From Botryllus schlosseri (lineage: Eukaryota), in NCBI GenBank assembly GCA_051294905.1, contig CM119372.1, forward strand, positions 31,250,001 through 31,314,000: a stretch of 64,000 bases of DNA, in the 5' to 3' direction. The translations under genes and the position numbers were made by a program. This document shows, piece by piece, positions 1 through 55,602 of this stretch. Position 1 is the stretch's first letter; the number at the start of each line of letters is the position of its first letter. The notes under the pieces were generated by a model. It had not been told where the DNA came from, did not search any database, and saw nothing but the letters and a program-made list of their open reading frames with translations.

Positions 1-2
1 GG

Positions 3-86
3 AAAGGAAAGAAAACGCAATATCTTGTAAAATGGTTTGGTTATCCGTCTAAATTTAATTCTTGGGTCTCGGATTTGTATAAATAG
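3..86 (+). CDS. C-terminal chromodomain of Polinton retroviral-like integrase (partial)
   Basis: Frame 3 reads KGKKTQYLVKWFGYPSKFNSWVSDLYK*, matching the chromodomain motif YLVKW-G----NSW found at the end of Polinton integrases. Confidence 0.85.
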   Translation, partial: KGKKTQYLVKWFGYPSKFNSWVSDLYK

Positions 87-95
87 ACACCGAAA

Positions 96-1172
96 ATGTT
101 GTTCAACCTAATTATGGATTCTGATTCCGTCTCATCTCGCATGTGTCAAGTCTCGAACAGTCTGAAAAACCAGATTGTGTTTATTGTACAGATTTGTATG
201 TTAGTGTGTGTAATCGTGTTTTCATTATATCAAATTTCTGTCGGGGTGGATCGTGAGATATATTTAACGCTACTGTCTTCTTCACTTGGGTATCTATTAC
301 CGAATCCATCACCAATCGTATATGTTGAAAGAAACAATAAAATGTTGTTGACTCTACCTTCGAATGCGAGTTTGGATAAATTTCCGAATACTAGCACAGA
401 TTTTCAAACGGAACTTTACAAAGAATTAGAAATGAATCGCCATGAGCTAGGATTATGTGAGCTAACCTTCCCCAATGATTTTCAACCGCGAATTGAAGTG
501 ACAGCGAAAAGTATCGGTTTTGAATTTGTCGATGCGAATGGATACACCGATCGGTATTATATTCCCGAAGGCTCGTATTACAGCATCGGTGAAATGTTAG
601 AATCGTACGAGAAATATTACATGGGGGACATTTTCATTTTACAAGGATTCGGAGACTTTAGAATCACATTCAGAAGATTAGTCACGAGTAAAAAAAGATA
701 CAAGCGGGGTGTACCCATAAATACCGATACCGCAGACTCTAGCGTCAAACACATACCCCGTACCACGCATGATTCACCCGAACCTTACGGATTGATACCA
801 CTTGGTTCTGTGTTGGATACAATAACATTTAGACGCGTTGTATCTCGTCGTCGCGGAGTGGTAGAATTTATCTTTACACCCGCGATAAAGTTGGAACGGA
901 TTGATAAGGTTTATGTGTATTGTGATCTGATACAACCAAGACCACACGGTAACAAGCTGCAACAACTTTTACGGGTGGTTACTGTAACCGCTAAACCGAA
1001 TGAAAACCAAATCAACATATTCTCAAAACCATACTTCTTTGCTTTAGCGAGAAACAATTTTAGAACAATACGAATTTATCTACGTGATGCGGCAGGCAAC
1101 CCTATTAAATTTCGAAAAGCACCAGTGACAGTAACCCTACGCTTCCGTCGTAGAGCTGTTGATTCAATATGA
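96..1172 (+). CDS. Small double-hydrophobic-segment membrane protein (aa 1-82) fused in frame to minor capsid protein/penton 1 (from internal ATG at 342)
   Basis: The N-part has hydrophobic IVFIVQICMLVCVIVFSLYQI...IYLTLLSSSLGYLLPNP, as in a small Polinton membrane ORF. From M83 it has penton signatures LTLPSN, ELGLCELTFP, VYVYCDLIQP, LLRVV, KPYFF, IYLRDAAG and VTLRFRR. Confidence 0.85.
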   Translation: MLFNLIMDSDSVSSRMCQVSNSLKNQIVFIVQICMLVCVIVFSLYQISVGVDREIYLTLLSSSLGYLLPNPSPIVYVERNNKMLLTLPSNASLDKFPNTSTDFQTELYKELEMNRHELGLCELTFPNDFQPRIEVTAKSIGFEFVDANGYTDRYYIPEGSYYSIGEMLESYEKYYMGDIFILQGFGDFRITFRRLVTSKKRYKRGVPINTDTADSSVKHIPRTTHDSPEPYGLIPLGSVLDTITFRRVVSRRRGVVEFIFTPAIKLERIDKVYVYCDLIQPRPHGNKLQQLLRVVTVTAKPNENQINIFSKPYFFALARNNFRTIRIYLRDAAGNPIKFRKAPVTVTLRFRRRAVDSI

Positions 1173-1840
1173 GTTACATCACGTTGTCTGGCACCAAAGG
1201 CGAATTCTCGGTGGTGTTACCGAATGAAATTATTTGTAATGAGCTTGCGTTGGTGGATATGAGTTTTGTCAGTGAATCTCTTGATCGAATTATAATCAAT
1301 CGTGATCAAGCACTCTGGGAGCTACATAATGAGAAAGATCGAATAGTAGAAGCGTACCTAACACCACTTGGGAATTATGCAAACAACCTCGAGTTGACGC
1401 GAAGAATATTATCTGAAAGTTTCAAACACTGTTTCACCGAAAGAATCAACGATGAACTTTTCCGAATTCGTTACTCGAAACGTATCACACTCCACCCCAC
1501 GGATATATTCACGAATTATTTCAGTGTAGTTGATCAAGTGTCGACACCAGTATGTAATGTCACGTCGATCAAACCTAAACCAACTCAACCCCACCACAGA
1601 TATCTTTTTGTGTATATGAATGTACTACGACATCATCCGGTGGGTGATTACATGAGTCAATTGCTTTGTGTGATCCAAGTAAATAAAGAGACGTGTATGA
1701 GACAAGAAGTTGTATATGAAAAACCGTTTTATTTCCCAGTGTCGATTAACCACGTCCGCGATATAAAAATCACCATCCGGGACCAATACGGTCAGTTAGT
1801 ACATGATATAGAGACCACATTGACACTCCACGCACGATGA
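1169..1840 (+). CDS. Minor capsid protein/penton paralog 2
   Basis: ELALVDMSF ... YLFVYMNVL..HPVGD...LLCVI...KPFYFPV...ITIRDQYG...TLTLH aligns by eye with the penton 1 core. Confidence 0.82.
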   Translation: MSYITLSGTKGEFSVVLPNEIICNELALVDMSFVSESLDRIIINRDQALWELHNEKDRIVEAYLTPLGNYANNLELTRRILSESFKHCFTERINDELFRIRYSKRITLHPTDIFTNYFSVVDQVSTPVCNVTSIKPKPTQPHHRYLFVYMNVLRHHPVGDYMSQLLCVIQVNKETCMRQEVVYEKPFYFPVSINHVRDIKITIRDQYGQLVHDIETTLTLHAR

Positions 1841-2232
1841 AAATAGTGACGTTAACCACTTCTATGCTTGGTGTTGATTTTGAACACAGACTACTCACCA
1901 TCAACAACATCCCGACGAGGTATTGTGAATTAGCCCTCATGGAGATCGATTTCTCTTTAACCGAACCGGTGATTGGTCAATATTTGTTTGTGTATTGTGA
2001 TATTATTCACCCTCACTTACTTGGAGATACGTTAGCGCGTTTATTACGAGTTATACCGCTGACACCCGGTGATGTCACGCATAATTGGGTAGCGACAAAT
2101 CCGTATTATTTCCCTGTTTCAAAAGATGTTGTAGATTCTGTATGTCTTTACCTCGGGGATGAGTTTGGGGAACCTATAAATATAATAAGTCGTTCATTGC
2201 AAGCTACATTTAACATTAGGAAGCGATTATGA
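1837..2232 (+). CDS. Minor capsid protein/penton paralog 3 (minimal, almost no central insertion)
   Basis: ELALMEIDF, ~8 aa, YLFVYCDII.PHLLGD...LLRVI...NPYYFPV...LYLGDEFG...ATFNIR: the same core motifs as pentons 1 and 2. Confidence 0.82.
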   Translation: MKIVTLTTSMLGVDFEHRLLTINNIPTRYCELALMEIDFSLTEPVIGQYLFVYCDIIHPHLLGDTLARLLRVIPLTPGDVTHNWVATNPYYFPVSKDVVDSVCLYLGDEFGEPINIISRSLQATFNIRKRL

Positions 2233-2600
2233 AAGTTGTTTTCACGTGTGATCATCATTCTGTCCATCGTCATTATAACCAGACAGGTGATGGTTATGGA
2301 TATTTTAGTGGTGGAGTTCAAGCCGGTTCCGGTATCGGGAGTTTGTTTAAATCACTCGGTCGTTTAGTGACACCTATTGCGAAATACGCTGGCGGTCAAT
2401 TGCTACGGACTGGAGGTGAAATAGCGAGAGATCTATTACGGGGTAACTCGATCAAGTCTAGTGTTGTCAAGAGAAGTAAACAAGCTGGCGGTCGAGTGAT
2501 TGATAAAATTTTAACCCCAAAAGCTATAAAAAGGAAAAAAACAAAGTCAAAGAACACTTCATCCAAACGTCGTCGTAAACAACAGGATATATTCGACTAA
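2229..2600 (+). CDS. Polinton virion core / membrane-active protein (adenovirus pVI/pVII-like)
   Basis: QTG-DG and QAG-SG glycine motifs, an amphipathic helix GIGSLFKSLGRLVTPIAK and a basic tail KRKKTKSKNTSSKRRRK ending DIFD. It lies directly before the major capsid gene. Confidence 0.8.
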   Translation: MKVVFTCDHHSVHRHYNQTGDGYGYFSGGVQAGSGIGSLFKSLGRLVTPIAKYAGGQLLRTGGEIARDLLRGNSIKSSVVKRSKQAGGRVIDKILTPKAIKRKKTKSKNTSSKRRRKQQDIFD

Positions 2601-2605
2601 GAACT

Positions 2606-3877
2606 ATGTTGATGCACGCGGGTTCCAGAGAATGCCATAACTCGGGATTAAACATATTTAGTATACCCCACACACAAACCAGTATTGAGGAATCGCAATA
2701 TGTCGTCGTCAAACCCCATAGTTTAGGTAATGTCATGGAAGTACAATTACCAAGGACGGATCGATATATGGATCTACAAAACACGTTCTTGAGATTACGT
2801 TTGAAGCTCACTAAACGCGATGGAACTGATTTAGCAAACGATACACAAGTGGGCCTGGTCAATAACATGTTGGATTCTCTTTTCAAACAAATCGATGTAA
2901 CTATTTCAAATGAGGTTATCACAAATTCGGATAATTGTCATGCGTACAAAGCTTATATCTCCCGGTTGTTGAATGATACACATGGTGCCTCGGAGAGTTT
3001 TGTGCAAGGACAAGGTTTTTATAAAGATGTCGCTGGATCTATGGATGTTCTTGGTGCAGCAAATACTGGATATGTTAAACGAAAAGACCTTACAAAAAAC
3101 AGCACTCCGTTAGAGTTGATCGGAAAAATTCGAATGGGTCTTTTTGAACAGTCTAGATGTATGTTGGATAATGTCGACATGAAATTAAAATTTACACGTA
3201 ACGAAGATAATTTCTGTCTGCTTGGTGACGCGGAAGATGTACAAATTGTTTTACTCGAAATGGAGGTGTATGTCAAACAGATGAAGATCGCTGAAAGTGT
3301 AAGCTTAGCACACAAGTCTGTATTACAGAAGAATACTGCCAAGTACCCCTGGATACGCTTACAAATGTCGACTCATACATTCGCCGCGGGTTTGTCGAAA
3401 ATTGATAGAGAGTTAGTTAGCGGCACCATGCCAAAGAAGATCGTAATTGGTTTAGTTGAGACCACGACATTTAACGGTGTTCGAGCCAAAAATCCATTCA
3501 ACTTTAAACACTTTGATGTTCAAAATCTTTCGTTAAGTGTGGACGGGCGACAAATTAACGGACGCGAATTTCATTTCGATTTTGATAAACACGGCGGACT
3601 CGAAGGTTATATGACACTATTCTCTCAGACAGGTCGCTGGGAATCCGAGGCACCTTTAAATATTTCACGCAAAGATTATGTCAATGGGTACACTCTTTTT
3701 GTGTTTGATTTGACACCTGATAATAGTTTGGGATGTTATCAACTTCATAAGACAGGAACTGTGCATCTGGTTTTGACTACATCGAAGCCTTTACCAACCT
3801 CCGTAACCTTGTTATGTTTGAAGGAGTTTCAACATCTTCTACAACTGAATCAAAAAAGACAAGTCGTCGAAATATGA
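2606..3877 (+). CDS. Major capsid protein (double jelly-roll, hexon/PY)
   Basis: 423 aa with Polinton MCP-type motifs: IFSIPHTQTSIE, YMDLQNTFL, VNNMLDSLFKQIDV, YKAYI, PKKIVIGLV, NPFNFKHFD, GYTLFVFDLTPD. Confidence 0.92.
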   Translation: MLMHAGSRECHNSGLNIFSIPHTQTSIEESQYVVVKPHSLGNVMEVQLPRTDRYMDLQNTFLRLRLKLTKRDGTDLANDTQVGLVNNMLDSLFKQIDVTISNEVITNSDNCHAYKAYISRLLNDTHGASESFVQGQGFYKDVAGSMDVLGAANTGYVKRKDLTKNSTPLELIGKIRMGLFEQSRCMLDNVDMKLKFTRNEDNFCLLGDAEDVQIVLLEMEVYVKQMKIAESVSLAHKSVLQKNTAKYPWIRLQMSTHTFAAGLSKIDRELVSGTMPKKIVIGLVETTTFNGVRAKNPFNFKHFDVQNLSLSVDGRQINGREFHFDFDKHGGLEGYMTLFSQTGRWESEAPLNISRKDYVNGYTLFVFDLTPDNSLGCYQLHKTGTVHLVLTTSKPLPTSVTLLCLKEFQHLLQLNQKRQVVEI

Positions 3878-4317
3878 ATACGTCTGAGATCGATGATATT
3901 CTCTATAACCACCCTGACACACAAAGTCTATATCTAGGAACTTATCCAGTAGATCAGTTACCGAAGAAACCAACTAGCGGAAAATTCGCTATCACCATTA
4001 ATTACGATGAGTCGAGTTTGCCTGGGTCTCACTGGGTGTCTATATACAGAGATGACGATACTCATTTTCATGATTCGCTAGGCTTCGGACCACTAAAACC
4101 TCAGATAATCGAATTCCTGGAGCCGGATGAATTTTCAGTGACTGGGAAACAGTTACAGAGTAAAACTTCAGATGTGTGTGGAGATCATGCTATCGCATTC
4201 TTGATAAAAAGAGCTCAAGGGTTTTCAACCGAGGAATACTTGGATAATTTTGGCGATGATAAAAAAGTGAATGATACGATTGTACGTGCTTCTGTGAAGA
4301 GTTTGATTTCAGAGTAA
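3874..4317 (+). CDS. Adenain-like cysteine protease (virion maturation)
   Basis: Probable start MNTSEI at ATG 3874, overlapping the MCP stop. Catalytic motifs are GSHW (His), HDSLG (Asp), KQLQ (oxyanion Gln) and VCG (Cys). Confidence 0.9.
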   Translation: MNTSEIDDILYNHPDTQSLYLGTYPVDQLPKKPTSGKFAITINYDESSLPGSHWVSIYRDDDTHFHDSLGFGPLKPQIIEFLEPDEFSVTGKQLQSKTSDVCGDHAIAFLIKRAQGFSTEEYLDNFGDDKKVNDTIVRASVKSLISE

Positions 4318-4321: not shown

Positions 4322-4709
4322 CGAATGTGTAAATGTGTATACTTGTGATTCTTGTTGTGGTTGTGAACAGCAGACTATTCTGTAGGCGCGAAACAGCGAA
4401 GGTGTGAATAATCCGATCTGAAAGTATTATTCAGCTAGCAATCAATAGCGAGGAAAGAGAACACGATCGGTCATTTGACACGACTAAACTACGACATCAT
4501 ATATCATAATTTACGATCAAACTATTTCACACTGACTGGTCTAGTGTAATAATCGATAGTAGCACACAGCTGGACGGGAAATAATTCAGCGCGCAGGTCA
4601 TTCGGAATATAGGTCGCACGCACTACTTAATCCTCTTGCAAGCCACGTTTCCGTTTGTGCGGTTATTGTTGGTGACTATTCAACACCACGCGAGAGATGG
4701 TTGAAAGTG

Positions 4710-4970
4710 CGAATCACGATCGCACCCATAAGAACACATAGCGAGTCACCACAGATCCCGTAAGAATACATGGCGCATCACCGCCGCAGCCTATAGCAAA
4801 AAAGACGAGTCACGACCACGAGTTTTCACGGCGAATCACCGCCGCATCCATAAGCCACAATGGCGCATCACGACCGCATCCATAAGAACACATGGCGCAT
4901 CACCGCCGAGAGGGGGGTCTAAAAAGGCGCATCACCACCCCCGGTTTTCAGGCGCGTCACCACCCCGCCT
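4710..4970. repeat. Degenerate ~25-35 bp tandem repeats in the Polinton terminal region
   Basis: Recurring core (G)GCG(C/A)(A/G)TCAC(C/G), often preceded by CATAAGAACACAT; roughly 8-10 units. Confidence 0.85.
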
Positions 4971-5021
4971 ATACTACCCCATGCAAAAAACGTTAGTTCG
5001 CGACCGATCGTATATACTACT

Positions 5022-7769
5022 TGCGTCATGCACAGCTAAAATTCATAAATTACTTGTGGGCGTTCTATTAGACTCGGGCTCTTTCGAAAATTATATGGAC
5101 GAGTTGGTAGCCATTAAACTAGGATTTCTGCCACGAGGTCAGTCCACTACTATATCACTCGCGTCCAAGACAGCGACAGCCGAAGTTTCCGGCACCTTTA
5201 CTGTTGCTTTCGAAATGCTATCTCGAAACTATGTGGGTGTCACATTCGGGGTGGTTAAGGATTTGTGCGCTGATGTAATTCTTGGTCATGATTTCATGAA
5301 GAAGCACAAGAAAGTCATCTTCGAGTTTGACGGAAACGAAGAACCGCTGACAATACAAAGTCGATCGTGCGCTTTGTCCCCTGCTAAGGCAGAGCCTCTT
5401 CAGTTATTTCGGTTCCTAGATTCCAATTGCAAGCCTATCGCCACCCCATCAAGAAATTATAGTCGCGAAGATCAATCGTTCATCAAGGACGAAGTTAATC
5501 GCTTACTCGAAGGAGGAATAATTGAGCCTTCTCGTTCTCCTTGGCGTGCTCAAGTATTGGTTACGAAGGTTTCCAGGCACAAGAAAAGACTTGTAATTGA
5601 TTATTCGCAAACCGTAAACAGGTATACTCCGCTTGACGCGTATCCCTTGCCAAAAATTGAAACTATCGTAAATGAAGTGTCGAAAGGTAAAGTATATTCG
5701 ACTAGTGATTTGAAGTCTGCTTATCACCAAGTCCCGCTATCTTCATCTGACAAGCCGTTTACCGCTTTTGAAGCTTGCGGCTCCCTTTATCAGTTTTGCA
5801 GATTGCCTTTCGGTATCACCAATGGAGTGGCTGCTTTCCAACGTTTTATCGATTCGTTCATCGACGACTACAGTTTGAAGGGGACTCTGGCTTACTTGGA
5901 CAACATCACTATATTCGGCAAAGATGCCGCGGAACACGACGCGAGACTTCAAGCTGTCCTCAAAGCCGCATCTGATTGTCGACTAACGTTGAACGAGAAC
6001 AAATCCGTCTATAACGTGAGTGAATTGCGTCTATTGGGTCATCTGGTGTCGCACGGATCCATTAAACCCGACACAGATCATCTGAAACCGTTGATTGAGT
6101 TGCCACCCCCTAAATCGGATAAAGAGATGAAAAGGATCTTGGGTATGTTCGCATATTATTCAAAGTGGATTCCAAGCTTTTCTGATAAAATCAAACCAAT
6201 GCTTAGCAATTCAGTTTTTCCACTTAGTGGGCCTGCCCTGACCTCATTCAATGTTCTGAAGGAAGACTTGATAAACGCATCCCTTTGTTATATTGACGAA
6301 TCTGAACCGTTTGAAATTGAATGTGATGCGTCCAACAACGCTATTGCTGCTATTCTCAGTCAGCGAGGTAGACCTGTGGCATTTGCCTCGCGAACATTTG
6401 CTAAAAGTGAACTAAATTATCCTGCTGTCGAAAAAGAAGCAGCCGCAATCATGCATGCTATAAGAAAGTGGGGGTACCTTTTACATGGTCGTAAATTCCG
6501 ATTGATAACTGACCAAAAGGCCCTGTCGTTCATTTTTCAGAAAAAGCATCGCAGTAAAATAAAAAACACTAAATTGACACTGTGGAAGCTGGAACTTAGT
6601 GTTTTCGACTACGAGATTGTTCACAGACCAGGAGTAGAAAATATTGCGCCTGACACCATCTCTCGGATTTGCAGTCTAACGGCTTTGTCCACTGATTTAC
6701 GCGAACTTCACAACATTTTAGGACATCCGGGCATCCGTAGGTTGAGTCATTTTGTTAAATCTAAAAACCTACCCTATTAAAAGGAAGACGTCAAAAAGGT
6801 TTGTGGTAGCTGTAGACAATGCTCCGAATTGAAGCCTAGATTTCTCAACAACAACGAGCATCATAAACTTGTCAGAGCCACTCGCCCATGAGAACGCATC
6901 AGCATGGACTTCAAAGGCCCCGTGGCTGGGAGAAACAGGTTTTTATTGATTGTTGTGGATGAATACAGTCGGTTTCCTTTCGTGTTTCCATGTCGTGATA
7001 TGTCTACTCCAACCGTGATGCGCAACTTGAAGACGCTGTTTTCTCGCTCGTAGGAGTTCCCGAATATATCCATAGCGATAGAGGAAGCTCTTTTATCTCC
7101 AGAGATTTGATTACGTTTTTAACCAAACGTGGTGGCGCTACTAGCAGGTCTACTCCGTATCATCCTACTGGTAATTCTCAGTGTGAACGCATCAACCAAA
7201 CGATTTGGAGAACAATCAAATTGATTCTTGCTACGGAGCGGCTGCAGGAATCTGCGTGGGAAATGGTGTTGAATGATGCGCTACATAGCGTGCGATCGCT
7301 GCTTTGTACAGCTACAAACGCAACACCACATGAACGATTTTTTGGTTTTCCTAGACGCTCGATGATTCGACCCTCGATTCCTGATTGGTTACTTTTCGCC
7401 TACTCTGTGCTGTTGCGACGTTTCCATCGATCTTCGAAGTCTGAACCGCTTTGCGACCCGGTCGAGCTGCTTGATGTGAATCCTAAGTACGCGTTAATAC
7501 GCCACGAAGATGGAAGAGAGTCCACCGTGTCCGTGAGAGACTTGGCTCCGAACCCTACCACCATCGATGTGGAGAGACCGGAAGCGAGAGCCGATACGTC
7601 AAGGACTGAAATGATTCCGACATCGAATGATCGTGCCGAGGCGTCGGATGATAAAGAGCCCGAGAATGAGACGTCGTTATTAAAGGACAATTCGTCGGAT
7701 ACGCCAATGACGCGCCGATCTAATAGGGTTAGAAAGTGTCCGGAATGGTACGGCGACCGCGTAAAGTGA
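5022..7769 (+). pseudogene. Gypsy pol, disrupted in the integrase
   Basis: In-frame TAA at 6778-6780 and TGA at 6889-6891 (conserved W position in P-W-ER), plus a frameshift near 7045-7050 before VGVPEYIHSDRG. Confidence 0.9.
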
Positions 7770-54058: not shown

Positions 54059-54201
54059 GGTAACTGAATGTATTTGATACACTCTGCCATTTCAGGTAGC
54101 TGAATAGCTGTCATGGGTCGGGTCGGGCATTTGTCATAAAATCGATTCCTATAGCCATCCTATAGTTTTCAATCAGCTGAGTATAGATGTCATGATCAGA
54201 C

Positions 54202-55602
54202 CTTTGACAAGCTCAGATGGTGTTTCCATGTAGACCAAGCCAGTAACGAATCGTCGAACCACTGACCATCGTTCCGCATGAAGACCTTCTTTATCAAAGG
54301 CCCGGAATCTGTTAATCTCCATCTCCGCTACAAATCTCGCTGCCAGGTATTCTTGGATGCTTTGGTTGCAGAAAAAGAATTCGAAATCACCTTTCATCAA
54401 ACGACGGCTGAGCAGATTTTCACCCGGAACTTTTGCCATTAAATCTTCAACGTCGTCGGCGGACAGTTCATAATGTTCCAAATCAGCTATCTTGAAGATA
54501 GCTCTTCCTTCTTGCATGCCTTGAAAGGACATCTCTTTCAATTTGTTTACTACCGACGGGATGTCTTCGCATTTTCGTATGTTTTTTACGTGTTCAAGAG
54601 CTGCGATGATCCTATCGTACAGCTCTGTGATTGTAGCCGGAGGAGGTCTGCGTGGATCTTTTCCCATTACAATCGCCGTTAAAATTAGGAAGACCGGTTG
54701 GGACATTATACGGAGCAATCGTGGCGACATTCTTTCAAGTCTTTCCCAAAGGCAGACTCCGTTTTCTCCAAGAAGGGAAGTGAATAGTCCACGTGCGTCT
54801 GGTAGGGTGAAACCATTCAACATAATAATATCCTGCGGTCGGGCTTCCGGCGGTAATTCCGAGATCCTGCATTCACGTGAAGAAACGAAGATTTTGACGT
54901 GCCGAAGGATATTCCGCGCTAAAATATTGTATAGAATTGTCCAGGTGCTGTATCTGTCATGTTTTCTGATGCTTCGAACTTGGCTGTCGTAAATAGTGAA
55001 CCTTGCTTGATCGAGCCCGTCAAGAAATAGAGTTGCTTCGGATTGATTTTCGTCCAACCACTCGAATGCCTGATCTTCTTCGGATTCAGTTTTGTAAAGT
55101 CCGTCGAATAGAAATTTTGACGGCTTGATATCGCTTTCGTCTTTAACGTCTCTCAATTCAATAAAATGTACCATCTTCTTTCCCTCGAACTGGAGATTTT
55201 TGTTTTTGCCAGAAAGTAAGCCAAGAGCTTGTCGAGTTAATCTACGTGTCAGTGTCGTTTTTCCTGATCCCGCTGATGCGACGATGGCAGTAATACCAAC
55301 CGTTTCAGACGGCTCCAGTTTCCCCCTCCGCTCTATCGACGCTATTACCTCGTCAATTTGGATCGGTTTACTTTCAGTCCCATCCTGGTACTTGAATCTG
55401 ACTTCATTTATCAGTTGATTTTGTACAGCTACATCGCTTTCATAACGACCTCTGTAGTAGGTGGCAACGTCAACCGTACGCATCTGCGGGTAAACTACAA
55501 AGCTCGTCTCTTGTAGACCGTTGTGCTGGAAGTCATCAATAATTCTCACCGAAGAGCGTTCGTCAGCATTAACGTTGACGATCTTTATAAGTCCCTCGAC
55601 GT
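54202..55602 (-). CDS. NLR-like gene, large NACHT exon
   Basis: Walker A ASAGSGKTT, Walker B LFLDGLDQ, sensor VSSR, LNGF, QPVFL and winged-helix QSIQEYLAA. The TTGCAG acceptor at 55603 and GT donor at 54201 keep the frame. Confidence 0.93.

Follow-up and report, generated by a model that had tools for sequence, protein, structure and literature searches.

A stretch of 64,000 nucleotides from Botryllus schlosseri (assembly GCA_051294905.1, contig CM119372.1, forward-strand positions 31,250,001 to 31,314,000; the whole stretch is called the window here) begins inside an integrated, complete Polinton of about 15.3 kb, and this element carries three consecutive, intact open reading frames (ORFs) on the plus strand, at window positions 342-2232, which encode proteins of 276, 223 and 131 amino acids (aa). 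Our results support the view that ORF1, ORF2 and ORF3 are paralogous penton-type single jelly-roll proteins, with ORF1 and ORF3 assigned by predicted structure and ORF2 by full-length profile homology, and it is very probable that all three are functional penton paralogues. The best explanation for the set is that the three genes are old tandem duplicates of a Polinton penton gene, all of which have been retained as functional components of the virion.

Polintons are regarded as ancestors of many DNA viruses of eukaryotes. The jelly-roll base of the penton closes the five-fold vertex in the double jelly-roll viruses known so far, and in solved pentons the insert in the D-E loop projects outward. 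Because the trio is conserved while most relatives carry a single penton, the particles may have corners built from more than one kind of subunit. The conserved trio therefore yields a concrete and testable prediction on particle architecture, namely vertices that break symmetry or are mixed, and to our knowledge such vertices have so far been solved only in PBCV-1, a giant virus, and PR772, a tectivirus. The full, reduced and missing inserts also form a natural series within one genome through which the role of the penton insertion domain could be probed, and about 90 near-identical copies of the element provide within-genome replication for evolutionary tests.

Penton folds and a graded insertion

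ORF1 lies at window 342-1172 (276 aa), in a frame that is open from position 96, and is followed on the same plus strand by ORF2 at 1169-1840 (223 aa) and ORF3 at 1837-2232 (131 aa). We take 342 as the conserved start of ORF1 because orthologues in two other families begin in a matching way (MLLTLPSNAS and MTLLVLPSNSS); in another copy of the element, the frame does not retain the extension upstream to 96 (stop-to-stop frame of 301 aa versus 361 aa). The original prediction, made from the letters of this DNA without database searches, described three consecutive intact ORFs with a common N- and C-terminal core, and BLASTP, profile comparison and motifs all bear this out. The C-terminal ~80 residues are common to the three proteins, which share 30% identity between ORF1 and ORF2 (E 1e-10), 33% between ORF1 and ORF3 (E 8e-14) and 32% between ORF2 and ORF3 (E 3e-11). 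Compared by hhalign, the ORF2 family matches the ORF1 family over 220 columns, its full length, with a probability of 99.6 (E 2.3e-24), and the ORF3 family matches the ORF1 family over the 81-column C-terminal core with a probability of 99.3 (E 1e-20). The N-terminal motif EL[AG]L.[ED]..F is found in all three, as ELGLCELTF in ORF1, ELALVDMSF in ORF2 and ELALMEIDF in ORF3.

Between the N-terminal strand and the YLFVY/VYVY strand stands an insert of graded size, as had been claimed with lengths of ~144, ~110 and ~8 aa; we measured ~140 aa in ORF1 (residues 48-187), ~107 aa in ORF2 (37-143) and 7-8 aa in ORF3 (42-48), and the description of ORF3 as a 131-aa core without an insert likewise holds, with a loop of 7-8 residues. 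The insertion domain of ORF1 (residues ~48-187, window 483-902, plus strand) is of full size and occupies the place that in virophage and adenovirus pentons is taken by the D-E loop insertion, according to the secondary structure of the model and an alignment with pentons. The shorter insertion of ORF2, placed by alignments at residues ~37-143 (window 1277-1597, plus strand), appears from sequence comparison to be a reduced homologue of the ORF1 insert, and the length of ORF2 as a whole differs among families (223, 219 and 259 aa).

The AlphaFold model of ORF3, built from a 16-row alignment, is confident and all-beta, with a predicted local distance difference test score (pLDDT) of 87 and a predicted template modelling score (pTM) of 0.82. 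In a VIA structure search of 48,161 chains, which does not lean on Foldseek, the best six matches of this model were all pentons, those of Sputnik (Z 11.6), PBCV-1 P1 (11.4), mavirus (11.3), EhV-201 (10.3), PBCV-1 P1v1 (9.9) and fowl adenovirus (8.9), with alignments that cover 119-129 of the 131 residues; next came an iridovirus capsid chain at Z 7.1, then generic jelly-rolls at Z 6.4 or less. Foldseek against the PDB returned nothing for ORF3 at E 0.001 or better, and its best rows were mixed jelly-rolls, among them PBCV-1 6ncl_a6 at a TM score of 0.54. In BFVD, ORF3 came closest to an uncharacterised 161-aa protein from an adintovirus associated with Drosophila (E 1.7e-8, TM 0.80). The ORF1 model has a pLDDT of 64, and its top Foldseek matches are the Sputnik and mavirus pentons (E 5.7e-5). 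VIA gave Z 9.1 over 233 residues to Sputnik and Z 8.9 over 224 to mavirus, within a group of five pentons at Z 8.1-9.1, and because so many residues align, the match takes in the insert. Hence, the models of ORF3 and ORF1 are eight-stranded single jelly-rolls closest to solved pentons, and ORF2 joins them through profile homology; a folded insertion domain between strands D and E is present in ORF1, and ORF3 has at that place only its short loop, like PBCV-1 P1. The assignment of ORF1-3 as penton jelly-rolls, put forward in the original prediction, is thus upheld by structure search for ORF1 and ORF3 and by profile for ORF2, and a fold unlike that of pentons, which was said to count against it, is not what ORF3 gave, with six pentons leading its search.

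Searches with sequence families were less telling. At E up to 1, a Pfam search with six proteins of the window found no match save a sub-threshold one to DUF4049 for ORF2, and PF21507 (Sputnik minor capsid protein V18/19) was matched by none of ORF1, ORF2 and ORF3. The nearest Atlas cluster of ORF2 that has a common Pfam family carries PF21507 on 26% of its members (score 0.95), which is a lead only, and a profile search of PDB sequences with the alignments A3 and A1 gave chance matches only (E 0.93 or more).

Both ORF1 and ORF3 find their best structural matches in the virophage pentons (Sputnik 3J26 chain N; mavirus 6G41/6G42). The mavirus penton has an insertion domain of 139 residues between strands D and E (PMC6048507), similar to the ~140-residue insert of ORF1, and the inserts of ORF1 and ORF2 are at the equivalent place. 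Sequence identity with the virophage proteins is 8-12%, and the penton described in virophages is encoded by one gene. Most adintovirus Pentons have the same fold and the same organisation of the D-E insert as ORF1 (PMC11071296), whereas here three ordered penton paralogues stand in the place of one.

Each of the junctions ORF1/ORF2, ORF2/ORF3 and ORF3/ORF4 is a 4-base ATGA overlap of stop and start (window 1169-1172, 1837-1840 and 2229-2232). Such overlaps also chain consecutive late genes at L022:8676-8679, in the upstream part of the same element, and in other families. In a eukaryotic host, this chaining hints at polycistronic expression, which might proceed by termination and reinitiation.

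Copy number in relatives and retention within the genome

With an E cut-off of 0.001, the ORF3 profile picked out 2,781 cluster representatives from 1.84 billion proteins, which shows that the penton family is large, and most of the best 150 of these representatives match at the C-terminus of proteins of 240-300 aa. To place the trio among relatives, we scanned metagenomes with alignment A3 and then searched the 50 related loci that this returned, using profiles of the proteins of this genome. In the 17 metagenomic loci that span the integrase to ORF4 or the major capsid protein (MCP), one penton ORF was found in 16, two in one (L038) and three in none; the single penton ORF lies within a gap of 679-1238 bp. 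These loci were retrieved with ORF1-like patterns, and three pairs among them have the same or nearly the same spacing and may be copies of one element. As a control, the same pipeline gave three penton ORFs in each of five loci of this genome (5/5). A further contig, L043, which has no integrase, holds at least two penton ORFs, and on L038 (3324-5272) and L043 (123-1582) alike we observed two full-length tandem penton genes on a metagenomic Polinton contig. These results indicate that the three-penton cassette is not routine outside the clade of this genome; the original prediction had named a routine occurrence as grounds for giving up its reading, and none of the 17 related loci shows such a cassette.

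Word-index searches for homologues gave 20 matches to ORF1, one to ORF2 and two to ORF3, and the N- and C-terminal motifs of ORF1 are common to 19 full-length homologues. A scan of viral contigs with alignment A3 found no relative. When the genome was searched with the MCP of a single-penton relative, no closer single-penton family was found; the search led back to the same families, with best matches at 33-38% identity.

A quick maximum-likelihood tree of 53 rows, in which many branches are long and weakly supported, separates the nine paralogues of this genome from 27 metagenomic pentons with a support of 96. Orthologues group together for ORF1 (support 100), for ORF2 (89) and for two of the three ORF3 sequences (99), and ORF2 and ORF3 form a group apart from ORF1 (86). 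Duplicates found elsewhere pair with each other, the two halves of P0049 with a support of 100 and L043a and L043b in one clade, and because these duplicates are mutual sisters, the duplications elsewhere, those on L038 and L043 included, appear to be independent of the one described here. Single polypeptides with two penton cores make up 11 of the best 150 representatives (P0031, P0064, P0035, P0036, P0048, P0104, P0029, P0030, P0049, P0111 and P0127), and in six of the 11 a bare core is followed by a long-insert form; these reflect either true fusions of duplicated pentons or read-through in the gene calls.

PMC4028283 defined the Polinton penton (PX), and its text contains neither "duplicat" nor "paralog". 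A preprint (PMC11071296) mentions "duplicate Pentons" in two genomes, and in three it notes Pentons that lack the insert, without stating whether the two features occur together. Multiple pentons are not discussed in the extracts consulted of PMC11161782, PMC11131425, the adintovirus preprint and PMC12220804, and in the literature as sampled through such extracts we found no description of a conserved three-gene penton cassette with graded inserts, PMC11071296 being the one relevant text. Thus, the three-penton set is unusual among relatives but foreshadowed in print.

Within the genome, we searched with ORF3 and scored 150 of 562 candidates. At least 90 matches have at least 91% identity over at least 126 residues, and 88 of the 90 have no stop; 12 further matches have 59-61% identity and a third group has ~36-38%. 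The ~90 near-identical copies lie on all large contigs and are nearly all intact, and at least three further subfamilies exist. Given these copies and subfamilies, the Polinton has been amplified massively and recently in the 495-Mb genome. The order ORF1-ORF2-ORF3 is kept in all six complete loci (6/6), which represent four subfamilies; L078, a truncated copy with MCP and protease only, was excluded from the locus counts. Across three subfamilies, the identity between orthologues is 44-56% for ORF1, 32-50% for ORF2, 36-62% for ORF3 and 48-80% for the MCP.

Of the 20 best copies, all 20 have an intact ORF1 and an intact ORF3, 19 an intact ORF2 and 18 an intact ORF4. Pairwise ratios of nonsynonymous to synonymous substitution rates (dN/dS), calculated from 18-20 copies, are 0.15 for ORF1, 0.21 for ORF2, 0.22 for ORF3, 0.02 for ORF4 and 0.03 for the MCP. 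Within the proteins, the insert and the core have ratios of 0.21 versus 0.08 in ORF1 and 0.37 versus 0.15 in ORF2, that is, the inserts are less constrained than the cores. The comparison across genomic copies that had been proposed as a check therefore reveals purifying selection and not the neutral evolution that was to count against the penton reading. We also reject the view of the three genes as neutral duplicates, with the ORFs intact, dN/dS well below 1 and the trio kept across subfamilies.

Arrangement of the vertices

We infer, in line with the original prediction, that the vertices of the particle are built from subunits of more than one kind. ORF1-3 share a single jelly-roll base that bears a graded insert, a full domain in ORF1, a reduced one in ORF2 and none in ORF3. 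Each paralogue would form its own pentamer, with the pentamers at different vertices as in PBCV-1. We regard separate, paralogue-specific pentamers at different vertices as the likeliest arrangement, with a probability of about 0.4. In PBCV-1, eleven vertices have P1 as their penton, and the unique one has P1v1, a variant with a large D-E insertion; the two have a near-identical jelly-roll base at ~10% sequence identity and form separate pentamers (PMC9617893). The likeness is that of a common base with a differing D-E insertion, and both P1 and P1v1 match ORF3 (Z 11.4 and 9.9). However, PBCV-1 is a giant virus with two unlinked paralogues whose locations have been solved, whereas the three genes here are adjacent and ~30% identical. 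If the vertices do differ, one type would have a special role, such as packaging and releasing the genome or attachment.

Several observations weigh against this arrangement. The vertex positions of ORF1-3 and their formation of pentamers are predictions by analogy, and the identity of ~30% among the cores of the paralogues is far above that of P1 and P1v1, which leaves room for mixed rings. The penton identity of ORF2 comes from profile homology, and the ORF1 model is of moderate confidence only (pLDDT 64). As the 20 copies used for dN/dS were picked by their similarity to ORF3, they form a biased sample, and mutations since insertion inflate the ratios. One true RNA run had 15 of its 12.9 million reads on the element, all of them partial, and no joints were seen among reads on the element (three further runs were only guessed to be RNA); among the runs listed as carrying the stretch, none is recorded as RNA. 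Finally, the literature on the group, in the extracts consulted, gave no description of Polinton particles, nor of virions of the Polintons of this group.

It is also possible, if unlikely, that two or three of the paralogues co-assemble in one five-fold ring, as in PR772, whose penton base consists of three P5 N-terminal domains and two insert-less P31 subunits (PMC6750898). The bare 131-aa jelly-roll of ORF3 beside longer paralogues mirrors P31 (126 aa) and P5 (PMC6750898), so that here as in PR772 and PRD1 an insert-less jelly-roll of ~126-131 aa accompanies a longer paralogue with an outward structure; moreover, the cores of ORF1-3 keep ~30% identity and common motifs, and ATGA-chained genes would favour co-expression. 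In PR772, however, P31 and P5-N are described as highly similar in sequence and ORF1-3 are much more diverged. PR772 and PRD1 are bacterial tectiviruses, the extension of P5 is C-terminal (a stalk and a knob) rather than a D-E insert, and co-assembly was observed there by cryo-electron microscopy, whereas a mixed ring of ORF1-3 would be a prediction by analogy. A three-chain complex prediction of ORF1, ORF2 and ORF3, with ORF3 as the partner, came out neither for nor against a complex (score 0.01, run without controls).

Less probable again is an arrangement in which one paralogue, probably ORF1, closes the vertex and ORF2 and/or ORF3 are accessory proteins, which might form a stacked turret layer or a peripentonal cement, assist assembly or act as a decoy against competing elements. 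This would agree with the ORF1-like full-length protein with an LPSNAS start that single-penton relatives carry, with the clustering of ORF2 and ORF3 apart from ORF1 (support 86) and with the presence of an archaeal virus jelly-roll turret protein (4ind) among the weak matches of ORF3 (Z 5.2). It is at odds with the alignment of ORF3 to true penton bases over 119-129 of 131 residues, well above other jelly-rolls, and with insert-less pentons being reported in some adintoviruses (PMC11071296) and in PBCV-1 as P1.

Quite improbable, in our estimate, are alternative particle types, in which one paralogue would occupy all twelve vertices of a given particle and a choice made by expression level or cell type would change the specificity of attachment, much as exchangeable receptor-binding cassettes would. 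The outward insert, as the main difference between the paralogues and a part that evolves faster than the core, fits such a scheme, but nothing in the ATGA-chained, promoter-less layout points to separate regulation, and the insert-less ORF3 has no obvious binding domain. One working penton with two redundant copies drifting to loss would fit the higher dN/dS of ORF1-3 (0.15-0.22) relative to the MCP (0.03) and ORF4 (0.02), but this view is largely refuted and hardly credible, as almost all copies examined carry ORF1-3 intact, their dN/dS lies far under 1, and their order is retained in four subfamilies that have diverged to 48% MCP identity.

Extending the proposal of different vertices, we suggest, a little more tentatively than for separate pentamers, that the twelve corners are not all alike, with a bare ORF3 and crowned ORF1 and ORF2 either sorted to vertices or mixed in rings. 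A specialised vertex would then arise from penton paralogues alone, without a fibre gene, and recurrent, independent tandem duplications or fusions may be one way in which small double jelly-roll viruses of eukaryotes come to have specialised vertices.

The element and its other genes

The right end of the Polinton is at window 5021. Its terminal inverted repeats are 660 bp long and 99.5% identical, with the left one upstream of the window at C2:31239751-31240410 and the right one, an inverted match to it, at window 4362-5021; this identity suggests that the insertion is recent. Similarity to another copy of the element stops at window 4982. The gene order is pPolB, ATPase, two small ORFs, integrase, ORF1-3, ORF4, MCP and protease. 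The element thus has a pPolB, an rve integrase, terminal inverted repeats and a capsid module, as expected of a Polinton, and its penton genes stand next to the MCP in a module that also holds a packaging ATPase and a maturation protease. Upstream of the window, an ORF of 1099 aa matches Pfam PF03175 (DNA_pol_B_2), and the P-loop ATPase and the two small ORFs sit between it and the integrase. The 3' end of the rve-type integrase gene occupies window 1-86 on the plus strand; its open frame begins upstream at L022:9016 and ends at about window 83. This frame matches the INT profile with E 1.8e-170, and an orthologue carries the Pfam domains rve and Chromo.

Between the pentons and the MCP, ORF4 (window 2229-2600, plus strand) encodes a small Gly-rich protein of 123 aa with a basic tail (KRKK...RRRK). 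No Pfam family matches it. With a dN/dS of 0.02 it is more constrained than any other gene of the module, and it is kept at the same place in all six in-genome loci (6/6) and in most metagenomic relatives. In kind, ORF4 resembles the "membrane-active capsid core" class of PMC11071296.

The MCP (window 2606-3877, plus strand, 423 aa) is identified by an Atlas lead and by synteny with the MCP genes of related Polintons. In its nearest ESM Atlas clusters (score 0.98), 14-30% of the members have PF21738, DJR-like_dom, a lead only from which the putative double jelly-roll fold of the protein is taken. The following gene (window 3874-4317, plus strand) encodes an adenain/Ulp1-like cysteine protease of 147 aa from its conserved start, recognised by the order H...D...Q...C in its sequence; it has no Pfam match, and its position is conserved in relatives.

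Three further regions hold ORFs. Upstream of the window, between the left repeat and pPolB, an ORF of 215 aa without a Pfam match lies on the minus strand (L022:549-1196). Directly beside the right inverted repeat are two ORFs (window 4981-7769), one of 599 aa that is retrotransposon pol-like and one of 168 aa; the first residues of the pol-like ORF fall within this repeat and recur at the left end of the element. The sole other long ORF of the window, of 436 aa, is on the minus strand at 54173-55483.

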